This document shows positions 935-5,413 of a stretch of 8,219 nt of DNA, one piece after another. The stretch comes from Candidatus Odinarchaeia archaeon. GTDB lineage: Archaea > Asgardarchaeota > Odinarchaeia > Odinarchaeales > Odinarchaeaceae. The stretch lies in the NCBI GenBank assembly GCA_029856525.1, contig JAHQXC010000060.1, positions 1-8,219 on the forward strand. Direction: 5' to 3'. Position 1 is the stretch's first letter. Each line of letters begins with the position of its first letter. Position numbers and translations under genes: made by a program. The notes under the pieces are model-generated. The model saw nothing but the letters and a program-made list of their open reading frames with translations, did no database searches and was not told the DNA's origin.

Positions 935-1216
935 TTGAAGGTTAATTTTATTAAGAAATCTAAGAAAGAGCTTGAATTAGAGATTGATGGTGAAGGGCAT
1001 ACACTATTCAACCCGATTAGGAAAGCTTTATTTAAAGATAAAAGCGTAGTTTTCGCTGGATACCACGTAGAGCATCCTATGATAGGTCAAACTAGATTTG
1101 TGATTAAAACAGATGGGAGTAAGACAGCGAAGGAAGCGTTGATAGATGCTATTGACAGTTTAAAAAACGAGATTAAAGATCTTAAAGAAGCATTTTTAGA
1201 GAGTAAAAAAAGTTAA
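935..1216 (+). CDS. rpo11: DNA-directed RNA polymerase subunit Rpo11 (RpoL; RPB11 homolog)
   Basis: EGHTLFNPI and AGYHVEHP motifs of the RPB11/RpoL family, 93 aa. TTG start preceded by the SD GAGGTGG (923-929). Confidence 0.96.
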   Translation: MKVNFIKKSKKELELEIDGEGHTLFNPIRKALFKDKSVVFAGYHVEHPMIGQTRFVIKTDGSKTAKEALIDAIDSLKNEIKDLKEAFLESKKS

Positions 1217-1226
1217 GTGCGTGTAA

Positions 1227-1697
1227 ATGGAGAAGAACTCTAAGCTTATCCGGGAATTTCTAAACTCTTTTACCAGTATTTATAAGATTGCTAAAGATAA
1301 AAATTTAGCTCGGATAGGCGATAACATAGTAAACCTAGCTTATTCACTAGCTGTTTTCATATTAACTAACAGGAAAGCCGGTAAAAAAGTACCTGGAAAA
1401 ATTTTATCTACAGCTCTTAGAGAGAGTAATCTTAGAATTTACGCTGGAAGCCGCCGAGACTCGCATAGCCTAGCGGATGTTGTAGAAGCGCTGATAGGTT
1501 ACTGTTGGCTTAAAGGAGAGTTCCCGATCAATAAGATAGTTGAAATATTAACTGAAAACATGGCTTCAAGTGTAAAAGCTGAAGGCTGTTTTGAAAGCGT
1601 TAAAGCATTCAAAAAACTATTAGAAGAAGTGGATTTAATTCTATCTAAAGAGTTTTTTAAACAGGATAGTCTAAAAAATGGTGAAACAGTTTATTAG
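1227..1697 (+). CDS. Archaeal RNase III-domain (Mini-III-like) protein without a dsRNA-binding domain
   Basis: LARIGD (D32) resembles the RNase III/Mini-III signature LA[FY][LI]GD. LADVVEALIG (D84, E87) matches the second catalytic motif AD.[FV]EA[LI][IL]G. 156 aa, helical, with no C-terminal dsRBD apparent. Confidence 0.7.
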   Translation: MEKNSKLIREFLNSFTSIYKIAKDKNLARIGDNIVNLAYSLAVFILTNRKAGKKVPGKILSTALRESNLRIYAGSRRDSHSLADVVEALIGYCWLKGEFPINKIVEILTENMASSVKAEGCFESVKAFKKLLEEVDLILSKEFFKQDSLKNGETVY

Positions 1698-2259
1698 AGC
1701 TTTAGGAATAGATGATACTCCCTTCCAGCTTAGAGAAGACCAGTATACTAACATAGTAGGAGTAGTATATAGAGGGAACCTGATCCTAGAGGATGTTTTA
1801 ACAACTATTATAGAAGTTGATGGATTAGATTCAACAAGTAAAATCGTAGAGATGGTTGAAGGTTCAAAGCTTTCAAGCCAGCTGAGAGTGATCTTCCTTT
1901 CCGGGGTAACTTTCGGCGGCTTTAACACCGTTAATATAAAAGAGTTGTATCAGCTATTGAAAATACCGGTTATAGTTATCTTAGAGAAGAAACCGGATTA
2001 TGAAAGAATTAAAGCTGGAGCCTGCCGAACTAAAAATTATGAGAAAATAATAACTTATATAAAGGAGGCCGGGGATATAACACCTGTCCAGACAGTTAAA
2101 GGGAGAATTTATATACAAATTTCAGGTTTAAATCTCAGCGAAGCGTTAAATTTAATATCCTTATTTCAAGCATCTAGCAAGATACCGGAGCCTCTTAGAG
2201 TCGCGCAGTTAATAGCAAAAATTTTTAAGAAAGAGAATAGTTTAATTAAAAGTTCATAG
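1678..2259 (+). CDS. DUF99/UPF0215 family endonuclease V-like protein
   Basis: Family-typical motifs LGIDD, VDGLDST, LSGVTFGGFNTV and KIPEPLRVA.LIA. Overlaps the preceding gene by 20 nt. Confidence 0.88.
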   Translation: MVKQFIRALGIDDTPFQLREDQYTNIVGVVYRGNLILEDVLTTIIEVDGLDSTSKIVEMVEGSKLSSQLRVIFLSGVTFGGFNTVNIKELYQLLKIPVIVILEKKPDYERIKAGACRTKNYEKIITYIKEAGDITPVQTVKGRIYIQISGLNLSEALNLISLFQASSKIPEPLRVAQLIAKIFKKENSLIKSS

Positions 2260-2275
2260 TTGAGAGGGATATAAC

Positions 2276-2608
2276 ATGGATTTTTGCGATGAATGTGGTG
2301 GTCTTCTATATCCTGTTTCAGATAAAGAATTGAAGTGCCGGCGGTGTGGTAAGACTTTCAATATGAAAAAGGATGGTTCATGCGCTACTGAAGAAATTAC
2401 CATTAAAAAAACACTGAGCCATGGGCCTAAAAGTGAAACATACGTTGTTAAAGAGAATGTGAACACTATGCCGACTGTGAAAGCGGAGTGCCCTAAATGT
2501 AATAATAAATTGGCATATTACTGGCAGGTTCAAACTAGAGCTGCTGATGAGCCGTCTACCAGTTTCTTCAGATGCACTGTATGCGGTTATACTTGGAGAG
2601 AATATTAA
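2276..2608 (+). CDS. tfs: Transcript cleavage factor TFS (TFIIS/RPB9-like, 'RpoM')
   Basis: Two Zn ribbons (CDEC...CRRC; CPKC...CTVC) and an intact QTRAADEP acidic hairpin. SD-like GAGAGGGA at 2262-2269. Confidence 0.96.
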   Translation: MDFCDECGGLLYPVSDKELKCRRCGKTFNMKKDGSCATEEITIKKTLSHGPKSETYVVKENVNTMPTVKAECPKCNNKLAYYWQVQTRAADEPSTSFFRCTVCGYTWREY

Positions 2609-2610
2609 TC

Positions 2611-2624
2611 GGAAGATTTATATA
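2611..2624 (+). promoter_or_regulatory. Candidate BRE/TATA (GGAAGA-TTTATATA) upstream of the GTPase gene
   Basis: A purine-rich run followed by a consensus TATA box in the 88-nt tfs-GTPase gap. A second candidate, TATAAATA, lies at 2644-2651. Confidence 0.5.
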
Positions 2625-2696
2625 AAATAAACCGACTAAAATCTATAAATACCTTAAAAAAAGCTGAAAAGTTTAGAAAAAAGGGATGAGACCGGA

Positions 2697-3194
2697 TTGC
2701 AAATATTAAAAACAAGTGAAGTGATAAAAATAGCGATAACAGGTCTCCCCGGTGTAGGTAAAACAACGATCACCAATCTGCTAACAAATAGAAAAATACC
2801 GGTGAAACATGATCCTACTATAGGAGTTAACTTTTCAAATATAAAACTCAATGAACTTAACAGTATACTATCCGTATTCGATTTTGCAGGTCAGGAGAGA
2901 TTCAGCTTTATAATAGATGATTTAATCAAAGGCTCAAAAATAATTTTATTAGTGACCGATTCAACGCCTCAGAATGTGTTAAACAGCATACCCTTACTTA
3001 ACAGGCTTAAAAGAATCGCACCTGATAGTAAAATAATAGGGATAGCTAATAAACAAGATATAAAAGGAGCTTTAAGCCCTGAAAGAGTCGCAAACATACT
3101 AGGTTTAGAAACATACGGTATGATTGCAATCGACAGCCGAGAGAAAGTTCACATGTACAGAGTGTTAATAAACGCTTTAAAAACAGTAAACTAA
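2697..3194 (+). CDS. Small Ras-superfamily GTPase (Rab/Arf-like motifs, Asgard-type)
   Basis: G1 GLPGVGKT, G2 PTIG, G3 DFAGQ, G4 NKQD, atypical G5 (MIAI). The start is uncertain: TTG 2697 (SD-like GGGATGA at 2683-2689) or the in-frame GTG at 2721. Confidence 0.92.
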   Translation: MQILKTSEVIKIAITGLPGVGKTTITNLLTNRKIPVKHDPTIGVNFSNIKLNELNSILSVFDFAGQERFSFIIDDLIKGSKIILLVTDSTPQNVLNSIPLLNRLKRIAPDSKIIGIANKQDIKGALSPERVANILGLETYGMIAIDSREKVHMYRVLINALKTVN

Positions 3195-3219
3195 AAACCA
3201 GTTATTCAAAACGATTACT

Positions 3220-3525
3220 ATGGAGCCGGCGACTTGGAAAATTATAAAAGATATCAATCCCGGCGATAAAAGAGTGAGAGTGATCGGCAGAATTATAGAA
3301 TCTGATGAAAACTATATAATTATAGACGATGGGACAGGGGTTATATTAGTAGATATAAGCAGTGTTGAAAGAAAAAACCTATTAGAATATGTTCTAGTCA
3401 CTGGGGCGGTTCACTCCACAATCGATAATAAACTTATTATAGAAGCTGAGCTGATAAACAGCTTCAAATATTTGAATTTTGAAATATACCATAAGACATA
3501 TAATCTAGTTAATAAGCAACGTTAA
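3220..3525 (+). CDS. Small single OB-fold protein, RPA14/Rpa3-like (replication protein A small subunit)
   Basis: PA...I.DI...D.RV.VIGRII....Y...DDGTG...V, then V.VTG.V......I.AE.I..F and a C-terminal helix. This closely follows the pattern I recall for Thermococcales RPA14. 101 aa, directly upstream of pcna. Confidence 0.72.
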   Translation: MEPATWKIIKDINPGDKRVRVIGRIIESDENYIIIDDGTGVILVDISSVERKNLLEYVLVTGAVHSTIDNKLIIEAELINSFKYLNFEIYHKTYNLVNKQR

Positions 3526-3526
3526 C

Positions 3527-3532
3527 TTTTTT
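3527..3532 (+). terminator. Oligo-T (T6) terminator-like tract after the RPA14-like gene
   Basis: TTTTTT begins 2 nt after the stop codon. Archaeal intrinsic terminators are oligo-T tracts, but short T runs are common in AT-rich DNA. Confidence 0.35.
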
Positions 3533-3568
3533 AATCCTAAACTATAAAAGTTAAAGGAGTGATCTTTA

Positions 3569-4318
3569 ATGTTCAAAATAAAGTTTGCAGACGCTAAATT
3601 TTGGAGAAACATCTCGGAGGCGCTGTCATCTCTAGTAGATGAGGGTAGTTTCACAGTGAGCCCGACTGGGATAAAAATGAGAGCTATGGATCCATCTCAC
3701 ATTGCAATGGTCGATTTTGAATTACCGAGCGAAGCTTTCCAACAATATGAATGCTCTAAAGAAGTTAAAATCGGTTTAAATCTTGATGAAATGGTTAAAA
3801 TTATGCGAAGAGCAGGCTCAGGAGATGCTTTAGAGCTATCAACCGAGGAAACATTAGACAGGCTTCATATAAAATTTATAGGTAAAGCGGTTAGAAGATT
3901 CAGCCTTTCACTAATAGATATTCAAGCAGAGAATATTCCAACACCTAATATCGACTTCAAATCCACTGTTACAATGACTACAGATACATTAAGACAGGCT
4001 ATTGAAGACGCGGAGATTATAAGCGATCATATAAAACTGTTAATGGAAGGGGAGACCCTAATATTAAAGGCTTCAGGGGACACTGGAGAAGTTGAAATAA
4101 AACTTACAAAAGATAATGATTCAGTTTTATCCGTTAACAGTAGAGAAAATTCTACAGCCACTTATTCACTAGAGTATCTTAACGATATAATGAAAGGCGC
4201 GTCTACATCTAACATAGTTGAGTTAAGTTTCTCGACTAATATGCCTATTAAACTAATGTTCCCGATTGAGAAAGGCGGTATAACATATTATTTAGCGCCA
4301 CGCGTTGAAGCGGAATGA
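3569..4318 (+). CDS. pcna: DNA polymerase sliding clamp PCNA
   Basis: MRAMDPSHIAMVDF, IGLNLDEMVKIMRR, YSLEYL and C-terminal YYLAPRVE motifs, 249 aa. SD GGAGTGA at 3556-3562. Confidence 0.98.
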   Translation: MFKIKFADAKFWRNISEALSSLVDEGSFTVSPTGIKMRAMDPSHIAMVDFELPSEAFQQYECSKEVKIGLNLDEMVKIMRRAGSGDALELSTEETLDRLHIKFIGKAVRRFSLSLIDIQAENIPTPNIDFKSTVTMTTDTLRQAIEDAEIISDHIKLLMEGETLILKASGDTGEVEIKLTKDNDSVLSVNSRENSTATYSLEYLNDIMKGASTSNIVELSFSTNMPIKLMFPIEKGGITYYLAPRVEAE

Positions 4319-4327
4319 GATGAGTTA

Positions 4328-5413
4328 ATGAGTGAAAACCTTAATAAAAGGATAGCCTTCAAATATGCGTGGAGCGTTGATGCAGCGAAGTACGTGAAGA
4401 ACACGGATATTAAATTAGCTGAATTAAAAGAGGATACGCCGGAAGTTGAGTATGTTTTTAGAAGATTCGACGCGCTGATAAGAATACCAGCGGATAAAAT
4501 TCAAAATATAAAAGAAGAGTATTTAGAATCCCCGTACACGCCTTACATACTACCTGTAATGACCCTGGCACTCTCTATAATAGGGGATAACCGGCTTTTA
4601 CATAGATGGGCGGTTATAGAGTCGAAGATAACCCAGATAAATCTACTAGGCGAAGAACCGGATATAATAAGAAAACTACTATACGATAAATTCAACTGGC
4701 AAGCCTGGTACATTGATAAAATAGAGAGAAAAACCCTGTTAGCGAATACCGGGATGAATTATGATTGGAAGCTTAGATTCGAAGACTTCTTAACCGCTAA
4801 CTATTCATTCCACGACGCTTACTGGAAGCTGAATAATCAGATTATTTATGAAGGAAACGTGCTGTTAACAAACCAAATATTCACTCGACTTATAAGCGAA
4901 AGAGTTAAACTAGACTTAGCTTCAAGAAAACTAGTAAAACCGGATTTAAAAGAGTTAAATGAAAGTTTTATAAACGCAGTTGAAAAATTAAAAACAGAGT
5001 GGGATGAATTAAAGAAGGAAGCGGGGTTCCCTGATACTCAAATACAAGGCCCTGTAAGAAGAGAGTCTTTTCCCCCCTGTATCCGAGATCTACTATCCAA
5101 AATGCTTGCAGGTGAAAATATACCGCATCAAGGCAGGTTTACACTCACATCTTTCCTCTTAAACATAGGAATGAATGAGAATGAAATAATAGAATTATTC
5201 AGAGCCTCACCTGACTTCAACGAGAAGCTGACAAGATATCAAATAGAGCATATAAAAGGCAGGGGTTTGAATAAACCACGTTACACACCCCCTTCATGTA
5301 AAACCTTGAAAACCTATGGTTTATGTTTAAACGCGGATGATACTTGCAGTAAAATATCACACCCGTTAAAATACTATAACATAACGAGGAGACTGGTGAA
5401 AAAAAATAAATGA
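4328..5413 (+). CDS. priL: DNA primase large subunit PriL with C-terminal Fe-S domain
   Basis: SFPPCI, IPHQGRFTLTSFL, FNEKLTRYQIEHI and YTPPSCKTLKTYGLC.....C..ISHPLKYY. Four candidate [4Fe-4S] cysteines at C251, C324, C333 and C340. Confidence 0.95.
   Translation: MSENLNKRIAFKYAWSVDAAKYVKNTDIKLAELKEDTPEVEYVFRRFDALIRIPADKIQNIKEEYLESPYTPYILPVMTLALSIIGDNRLLHRWAVIESKITQINLLGEEPDIIRKLLYDKFNWQAWYIDKIERKTLLANTGMNYDWKLRFEDFLTANYSFHDAYWKLNNQIIYEGNVLLTNQIFTRLISERVKLDLASRKLVKPDLKELNESFINAVEKLKTEWDELKKEAGFPDTQIQGPVRRESFPPCIRDLLSKMLAGENIPHQGRFTLTSFLLNIGMNENEIIELFRASPDFNEKLTRYQIEHIKGRGLNKPRYTPPSCKTLKTYGLCLNADDTCSKISHPLKYYNITRRLVKKNK
5395..5399 (+). promoter_or_regulatory. Shine-Dalgarno site (GGTGA) for the proposed ATA start of priS
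   Basis: GGTGA ends 6 nt before ATA 5406. The same 6-nt spacing separates GGAGTGA from the pcna ATG. Confidence 0.6.

Follow-up and report, generated by a model that had tools for sequence, protein, structure and literature searches.

Positions 1 to 8,219 of contig JAHQXC010000060.1 (assembly GCA_029856525.1, Candidatus Odinarchaeia archaeon), hereafter the window, form a co-directional archaeal information-processing cluster. Its genes run in the order Csl4, RpoL, an RNase III-like protein, Endo_dU/DUF99, transcription factor S (TFS), a small GTPase, an open reading frame (ORF) of 101 amino acids (aa), PCNA, PriL, PriS, a 163-aa ORF, L44e, S27e and aIF2-alpha (Table 1), within a genome of 1.32 Mb on 127 contigs. 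The GTPase is the subject of this study, a protein that a preliminary description had presented as Rab-like in its N-terminal half and Arf-like in its C-terminal half. With a probability of roughly 0.85, the gene encodes a minimal, 165-aa, stand-alone member of the Asgard ArfL group of GTPases, likely a soluble switch, whose Rab-like look is due to drift within the Odinarchaeia.

Table 1. Features of the GTPase gene and its surroundings, numbered along the window; residue numbers are those of the GTPase
Feature	Position	Strand	Basis and remarks
ArfL-group small GTPase, coding sequence	2697..3194	+	ORF and translation; 165 aa; TTG start; stop included
G1 / P-loop GLPGVGKT, residues 16-23	2742..2765	+	G16, G21 and K22 invariant in 56-sequence family alignment
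Switch I PTIGVNF with Thr41 (G2), residues 40-46	2814..2834	+	T41 invariant; P40 and G43 at least 90% conserved
G3 / start of switch II DFAGQERF, residues 62-69, catalytic Gln66	2880..2903	+	G65 invariant; D62 and Q66 at least 90% conserved
VTDST after strand beta4, residues 86-90, ArfL signature	2952..2966	+	V86 and S89 invariant; T87, D88 and T90 at least 90% conserved
G4 ANKQD, residues 117-121, guanine specificity	3045..3059	+	All five residues invariant in the family
TYGMIAIDS, residues 139-147, strand beta6 and non-canonical G5 region	3111..3137	+	TYGM[IV]AID[PS] kept in short and longin-fused ArfL
TFS	2276..2608	+	Pfam Zn_ribbon_TFIIS 67.9 bits, Zn_ribbon_RPB9
tfs-GTPase spacer	2609..2696	+	TATA-like boxes 2617-2627 and 2643-2651; purine-rich, Shine-Dalgarno-like GGGATGAG at 2683-2690
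RPA14 (Rpa3)-like OB-fold protein, 101 aa	3220..3525	+	Starts 25 nucleotides (nt) after the GTPase stop; AlphaFold2 (AF2) predicted local distance difference test (pLDDT) 94.5
PCNA, PriL, PriS	3569..6662	+	Pfam PCNA_N/PCNA_C, DNA_primase_lrg, DNA_primase_S
163-aa ORF between priS and L44e	6725..7216	+	Gins51 C-terminal domain, Pfam PF22090, 68.7 bits

This is clearly no chance reading frame, with orthologues ranging from 94% to ~40% identity across Asgard lineages and an AF2 model of pLDDT 86. Its product matches the Pfam families Roc (61.9 bits), Ras (55.5 bits) and Arf (53.4 bits), and TIGR00231 at 54.6 bits against a cut-off of 42.5. Residue 2 is Gln, the whole protein contains no Cys, and strand beta1 is preceded by just 9-10 residues; the sequence harbors neither a Gly2 for myristoylation, nor an N-terminal amphipathic helix, nor a prenylation signal. 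Three genomes of the same genus share the TTG start, whereas the other two have GTA in place of the next in-frame GTG, which shows the short N-terminus to be real. An alternative start further upstream, which could supply an amphipathic helix, was rejected, as a TAA at 2655-2657 closes the frame and no start codon occurs between it and the TTG.

The closest homologue is WEU39641.1 of Candidatus Odinarchaeum yellowstonii LCB_4 (94% identity, E 9e-92), and the remaining Odinarchaeia homologues share 59-88% identity with the window GTPase. Records from the Baldr-, Jord-/Frey-, Sigyn-, Ran-, Hel-, Loki-, Hod- and Njord-archaeal lineages contain homologues of 40-48% identity, and many of these bear the name ‘ADP-ribosylation factor-like protein’. 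Matches at E 1e-10 or better are present in 194 of 201 sampled Asgard genomes, falling below 1e-30 in most families and being no better than weak (1e-11 to 1e-15) in most genomes of about eight others. The named matches are nearly all Asgard, Thor and Hermod included, in searches that were not systematic for non-Asgard genomes, and two matching records are named ‘Thermoproteota archaeon’ and ‘Deferrimicrobium sp.’ (labels as recorded). The ‘Thermoproteota archaeon’ contig JAPDJY010000034.1 bears a GTPase-RPA14-PCNA-PriL-PriS block as in Jordarchaeia loci, and its record name looks wrong. The same can be said of contig JBHLQC010000048.1 (‘Odinarchaeota archaeon H3S.115’), where the match is of 48% identity over residues 5-153, the same as in Hermodarchaeota-labelled loci.

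Assignment of the protein to a group relies on two trees. In the first, of 141 rows, the window GTPase belongs to a clade of 86 rows made up of stand-alone proteins 146-195 aa long, with a Shimodaira-Hasegawa-like approximate likelihood ratio support of 99. Forms of ~280 aa with an N-terminal extension fall outside this short clade, and nine other small-GTPase paralogues from the genome of the window are placed far away. The second, a 79-row IQ-TREE tree, unites short and longin-fused forms in one clade (99/98), separate from the anchor clades of ArfR (97/91), RasL (99/96) and Rag (100/99). Of these, the ArfR anchors derive from three Asgard genomes, score 125-177 bits over positions 3-173 of the Arf profile and include an orthologue of GerdArfR1.

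The name of the clade comes from published classification. Vargova et al. (bioRxiv 10.1101/2024.02.28.582541), who credit the definition of the ArfL group to Klinger et al. (2016), describe it as confined to asgardarchaeotes and as having no direct relationship to eukaryotic Arf. Table S3 of that preprint, whose data set includes Odinarchaeota LCB_4, labels as ‘ArfL’ by tree the short Helarchaeales proteins NVM27612.1 and NVM28297.1, together with the longin-fused NHI92917.1 and WP_147664152.1, the latter from MK-D1. Membership of ArfL was taken here, after Vargova et al., as placement in one clade with such reference sequences. The short-clade member P0042 agrees with NVM27612.1 over two motif segments, in 30/30 residues of one and 38/38 of the other, close relatives of NVM28297.1 also lie inside the short clade, and the longin-fused ArfL-labelled sequences match its long sister groups. 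Since it shares a clade with ArfL-labelled sequences, the window GTPase is a member of ArfL, an ordinary representative of a known, functionally uncharacterised group and not a new hybrid.

Residue by residue, the hallmarks of the Ras superfamily are in place, with G1 GxxxxGK[ST] at residues 16-23, the switch I Thr at 41, G3 DxxG at 62-65 and G4 [NT]KxD at 118-121. The P-loop has an Arf-like Leu at position 2 and a Ras-like Val before GK, while the Arf-type Asp at position 3 is absent. The switch I core PTIG[VMQ]N also occurs in ArfR anchors, the GerdArfR1 orthologue included. ArfL proteins vary between A and G at the third position of G3, with G in many members other than the window protein, and A is also present in 3/13 ArfR anchors, these three reading VDVAGQ..FRFLW. 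Following strand beta4, LVTDST (residues 85-90) contains a DS pair that is also seen in GerdArfR1, and eukaryotic Arf reads VVDS at this point. From G4 onward the sequence runs ANKQDIKGALSPERVANILGL (residues 117-137); ANKQDLPxA is common to ArfL, ArfR and Arf, and GNKxDL takes its place in most RasL of the same genome. In place of a canonical G5, [ST]A[KL], the window protein has MIAID, the preceding Ser/Cys being replaced, and the form across ArfL is [IVT]A[ITL][DN]. The distance from G4 to G5 is 26 residues in the window GTPase and ArfL, ~31 in RasL and >36 in ArfR, and owing to this short spacing the Arf-profile alignments end near position 145 of 174 and the proteins reach only 150-165 aa.

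Much of the preliminary description agrees with these results. The ORF is borne out as a small GTPase of 165 aa with orthologues and the corresponding fold; PTIGVNF, DFAGQERF, LVTDST, the Arf-like G4 stretch, MIAI and Gln66 all occur where they had been placed, and Gly2, a long amphipathic helix and a C-terminal Cys/CaaX tail are lacking as reported. Its remark that G5 is atypical is correct for the sequence, but the trait is a signature of the family, TYGM[IV]AID[PS], and the Ala of MIAI (residues 142-145) is retained where Ras and Rab have SAK.

The AF2 model, predicted from the family alignment with a template modelling (TM) score estimate, pTM, of 0.83, contains six strands and the expected helices in the order of a small GTPase. 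The region from switch I through the interswitch to switch II has lower confidence (68-78), and the first six residues are disordered. Foldseek relates the model to many small GTPases at a probability of 1.00, in a list headed by ARF1 and GerdArfR1-GTP, with Arl1, Arf6 and Arl6 close among interleaved Ras/Rab matches. The E-values of this search do not separate Arf from Ras/Rab, and it is the superpositions alone that lean towards Arf, with TM 0.69-0.78 and root-mean-square deviations (rmsd) of 2.8-3.3 Å for the Arf family against an rmsd of 3.2-4.2 Å for Ras/Rab. The fold, which is predicted with confidence, superposes best on GTP-bound Arf-family structures. Eukaryotic proteins were compared through profile searches of the PDB, in which all 60 best matches of a profile of 56 short-clade sequences are Arf-family (81-93 bits, profile positions 2-131), among them GerdArfR1 at 93, Arl1 at 90, Arl5 at 89, Arf6 at 87 and Arf1 at 86 bits.

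Compared with the ArfL group at large, the window GTPase has in common the motifs G[LxP]xVGK[ST], PTIGxDF, VTDSTPxNV, IANKQDLPGA and TYGM[IV]AID, the restriction to Asgard archaea and the stand-alone form of ~150-190 aa. It differs in the interswitch of its Odinarchaeia clade (21 residues against 19), in having FSFII and not FRFLW, in a lower Arf-profile score (53 bits versus 64-75 in the five other stand-alone ArfL scanned) and in the location of the gene, which in Odinarchaeia and Jordarchaeia lies between tfs and rpa14-pcna. Among solved structures the best sequence match is GerdArfR1/HodArfR1 (PDB 8OUN, 8OUM, 8OUL), at 64 bits for the protein and 93 bits for the family profile, and GerdArfR1 is also among the best fold matches (TM 0.78, rmsd 2.8 Å), sharing PTIGVN, the DS pair after beta4 and ANKQD-x-GA. 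ArfR, however, is distinguished by an amphipathic helix, GLDxAGKT, a canonical SA G5, a longer alpha4-beta6 region and a separate clade; its helix-mediated membrane binding, which has been shown, has no counterpart in the window GTPase. With the eukaryotic Arf/Arl proteins (Arl1, Arl5, Arl8, Arf1, Arf6), which with their relatives make up all top-60 profile matches, the likeness is in G4, ANKQDLPxA followed by ‘...LGL’, while the absence of Gly2 and of the amphipathic helix, A for G in G3, the non-canonical G5 and a C-terminal third shorter by ~15 residues set the window GTPase apart. RasL proteins, of which the same genome encodes seven, resemble it in the VGK of the P-loop, in DxAGQERF and in the general fold, but differ in GDxxVGK[ST], a mostly GNKxDL G4, ETSAK and a 23-residue interswitch, and they score 127-195 bits on the Ras profile against 55.5 for the window GTPase.

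Several considerations weigh against reading the protein as an ArfL switch. The anchors of the 79-row tree are exclusively Asgard ArfR, RasL and Rag. At depth, the branching order of ArfL, ArfR and RasL is not settled by this tree, and approximately unbiased (AU) tests reject none of the groupings ArfL+ArfR (p 0.48, log-likelihood difference 1.15), ArfL+RasL (p 0.21) and ArfL+Rag (p 0.44). The ArfL label of this exact protein is drawn from its sharing a clade with labelled sequences. Its non-canonical G5 could give it a nucleotide affinity or specificity different from that of Ras or Arf, and GTP binding, hydrolysis, solubility and any partner are properties that we infer.

Of the alternatives, the one that survives best takes ArfL, the window GTPase included, as a divergent but genuine offshoot of the Arf lineage, with ArfR and eukaryotic Arf/Sar/SRbeta together as its sister group and with an Arf-type interswitch mechanism retained. 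The exclusively Arf-family top-60 matches of the family profile, the superpositions on Arf GTP forms and the unrejected ArfL+ArfR grouping are consistent with such an origin, as are the features held in common with ArfR, namely ANKQDLPxA, the DS that follows beta4, the FRFLW of switch II and an interswitch of 19 residues; Arf1 has an interswitch of the same length. It is nevertheless rather unlikely, given that the ArfL/ArfR/RasL trichotomy is left open and that no N-terminal amphipathic helix, which in the GDP form of Arf and ArfR is packed on the interswitch, exists on which an interswitch toggle could act, the 9-10 residues before beta1 including the disordered residues 1-6 of the model. 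Pfam Arf matches ArfL at 53-85 bits over positions ~11-145, compared with the far fuller ArfR matches given above, the window GTPase itself reaching 53.4 bits over 11-145 of 174 positions from within a separate clade. The Arf/ArfR features GLDxAGKT and DxGGQ (Zhu et al., PMC11914678) correspond in the window to GLPGVGKT and DFAGQ, with the Leu present, the Asp absent and A replacing G, and the same authors place ArfL near Rag and Rup2.

That placement leads to a further, quite improbable alternative, that the window GTPase is Rag/Gtr-like and forms part of a roadblock/longin dimer platform. A precedent exists in the longin- or roadblock-fused GTPases, annotated Arf and structurally closest to Rag, which were described in MK-D1 as ‘Rag-like but close to Arf’ (Tran et al., PMC10933270). 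Rag anchors also have a 19-residue interswitch, and the ArfL+Rag grouping is not rejected by the AU test. Yet the window GTPase has no Gtr1_RagA match at E 0.01 or better, reads NKQD in G4 where Rag anchors have HKxD, lies outside the well-supported Rag clade and ends 20 residues after G5, leaving no C-terminal roadblock domain. Rag structures are wholly missing from the top 60 PDB matches of the family profile, and on half-protein profiles built from the Asgard ArfR, RasL and Rag anchors the two halves of the window GTPase score 30.0 and 4.4 bits with Rag as against 48.7 and 16.9 with ArfR. As to MglA, whose partner MglB would be encoded nearby, the ORF list and Pfam show no roadblock gene in the window.

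The division into a Rab-like N-terminal and an Arf-like C-terminal half, with which the preliminary description began, is reproducible when the single sequence is compared with eukaryotic proteins. Residues 1-85 find GerdArfR1 in the PDB at 39.9 bits, then Rab7 (~32 bits) and Ras (~29 bits), with eukaryotic Arf absent from the top 60 matches, while the C-terminal half retrieves Arf-family proteins at a weak 13-18 bits and otherwise one Site-2 protease at 13.4 bits. Asgard ArfR1, the top match of the N-terminal half, is also within a bit of the best match of the C-terminal half. The N-terminal half contains the universally conserved G1-G3 and is therefore a poor discriminator between families.

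At the level of the family, both halves lean towards Arf. On the half-protein profiles the N-terminal half of short ArfL outside the Odinarchaeia scores 54.8 bits with ArfR and 43.7 with RasL, the former being higher in 27/27, and ArfR is likewise preferred in 16/17 long ArfL; for the C-terminal half of the short forms the scores are 18.3 and 5.4 bits. A tie in the N-terminal half occurs in the Odinarchaeia clade alone (ArfR 44.0, RasL 44.5 bits), where the window GTPase itself has 48.7 bits with ArfR and 42.5 with RasL. The signatures that had been taken for Rab are no more specific, PTIGVN and xDS being shared with ArfR, and ArfL, RasL and even ArfR alike having A or G in third place in G3 and E/D-R/Q-F at the start of switch II. 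Rab proteins are marked by GDxxVGKS, WDTAGQE, GNKxDL, ETSAK, a long interswitch and a C-terminal Cys for prenylation; of these only the letters AGQERF fit the window GTPase, as G4 is ANKQD, G5 is IAID, the interswitch measures 21 residues against 23 and Cys is lacking.

Measured from the switch I Thr to the G3 Asp, the interswitch is of 19 residues in 24/27 non-Odinarchaeia short ArfL and 12/13 ArfR, 23 in 7/7 RasL and 21 in 6/6 Odinarchaeia sequences. Drift in the Odinarchaeia would accordingly comprise the insertion of two residues at the interswitch tip and the loss of the switch II Trp (FRFLW to FSFII), which blur an N-terminal half otherwise on the Arf side, and the A in G3, variable across ArfL, would add to the Rab-like look. 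The mixed Rab/Arf look is a known trait of the ArfL family, strengthened by drift in the Odinarchaeia. The preliminary description had itself named one outcome that would lower its novelty, namely that the protein proves a regular member of an Asgard clade known from before and having these same motifs; ArfL is such a clade and the window GTPase such a member, and a notable mixture of features that are separate in Rab and Arf is accordingly not supported. A recombinant or chimeric origin was rejected on the half-protein ArfR and RasL scores. That the protein is a mosaic of a Rab/Ras-like and an Arf-like half, or a relic intermediate later split into the Rab and Arf families, is hardly credible: the single-sequence matches, the nearly equal Pfam scores for Roc, Ras and Arf and the Odinarchaeia tie speak for it, against the ArfR preference outside Odinarchaeia, the solely Arf-family structures, the shared switch II starts and one coherent clade with no sign of recombination.

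Within its own genome, the window GTPase has its nearest paralogue in a longin-GTPase fusion of 303 aa on contig C85 (1354-2265, minus strand; Fuz_longin_1 27.7 bits, Arf 84.8 bits), which is a longin-fused form of ArfL. Contig C118 carries an ArfL-like GTPase of 365 aa that is divergent in sequence and extended N-terminally by ~125 aa (1192-2289, minus strand) and, back to back with it, a RasL GTPase (1477-2031, plus strand, in a separate locus numbering); the two genes are divergent and ~115 nt apart, and may constitute a GTPase pair. Other RasL genes include a tandem on contig C27 (1495-2010 and 2028-2705, both plus strand, 17 nt apart) and one on contig C91 (253-1926, minus strand) with a C-terminal extension of ~390 aa in which no Pfam match was found.

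Downstream of the GTPase, the RPA14-like neighbour has no Pfam match of its own, but Ten1_2, RMI2 and Rep_fac-A_3 are detected in 7-10 of 11 orthologues, and its best Foldseek match is chain C of Pyrococcus abyssi RPA (TM 0.86, rmsd 1.7-1.8 Å). With the Gins51 domain in the 163-aa ORF, the block that follows reads PCNA-PriL-PriS-Gins51-L44e-S27e-aIF2alpha. The order GTPase-RPA14-PCNA-PriL-PriS recurs in Odinarchaeia (f1 and f2) and in 10/11 loci of Jordarchaeia/‘Freyarchaeota’. It is preceded by tfs in Odinarchaeia and in the three Jordarchaeia/‘Freyarchaeota’ loci (f19 type) that reach upstream; tfs was not detected upstream of the block in f7-type loci. In a rearranged f16 locus TFS, GTPase and RPA14 remain adjacent. 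Around PCNA, to a distance of ~1.5 kb each way, single genomes sampled from 13 other families yielded no GTPase, the contexts without it including TFS-RPA14-PCNA in f15 and TFS-PCNA in f13 and f6. A second setting is found in Thor-type loci, where short ArfL lies directly upstream of rpoD in 37/54, as at locus positions 1078-5907 on the Thorarchaeota chromosome CP070658.1, with NDK, L7Ae and a gene of the Fe-ADH_2 family on its other, upstream side. In these loci the Fe-ADH_2 family gene is possibly a glycerol-1-phosphate dehydrogenase, and rpoD, whose product is Rpb3-like and has an Fe-S insert, is followed by a conserved ORF of 141 aa.

The tfs-GTPase spacer may hold regulatory signals. Three genomes of the same genus show 100% identity over about 50 nt (2603-2653) that overlap the stop codon of tfs and extend beyond it, while the flanking spacer varies; judged by its letters, this segment with its TATA-like boxes may be a candidate promoter of a GTPase-rpa14-pcna unit. 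The putative promoter and Shine-Dalgarno roles are inference only, and the GTPase would probably be co-expressed with tfs, rpa14 and pcna.

As to function, the G1-G4 nucleotide-binding and switch residues, the conserved catalytic Gln and the predicted GTPase fold are all present. Lacking the amphipathic helix, Gly2 and Cys, the window GTPase is most likely a soluble GTP/GDP switch that would not act through the membrane-insertion mechanism of Arf/ArfR. The soluble, unlipidated GTPase of the preliminary description therefore appears the natural reading of an intact GTPase that keeps Gln66 and is devoid of lipidation or helix signals. Because its closest paralogues carry longin in cis, it is most economical to expect a platform or regulator that acts in trans on the short form, which probably docks on a longin/roadblock-type or other protein, be it a platform, a GTPase-activating protein or a guanine nucleotide exchange factor. 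It is conceivable, if doubtful, that short ArfL is a housekeeping GTPase working with the transcription and/or replication machinery, and not a membrane-traffic switch. The two information-processing neighbourhoods (tfs-ArfL-rpa14-pcna-priL-priS and ArfL-rpoD), together with the lack of a membrane anchor, make this link worth testing, although the order of genes within archaeal housekeeping clusters is a weak guide to what they do.

The hybrid look, as it was posed, changes nothing, for it is a known ArfL signature. ArfL is an Asgard-only, functionally uncharacterised group with a disputed relation to eukaryotic Arf, and its members can be told from ArfR and RasL by the 19-residue interswitch, VTDST, IANKQDLPGA, TYGM[IV]AID and the shortened alpha4-beta6 region. 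What the locus contributes is that stand-alone ArfL, in three or more Asgard classes, keeps its place amid information-processing genes, a testable hint on the function of an uncharacterised ‘eukaryote-like’ GTPase.

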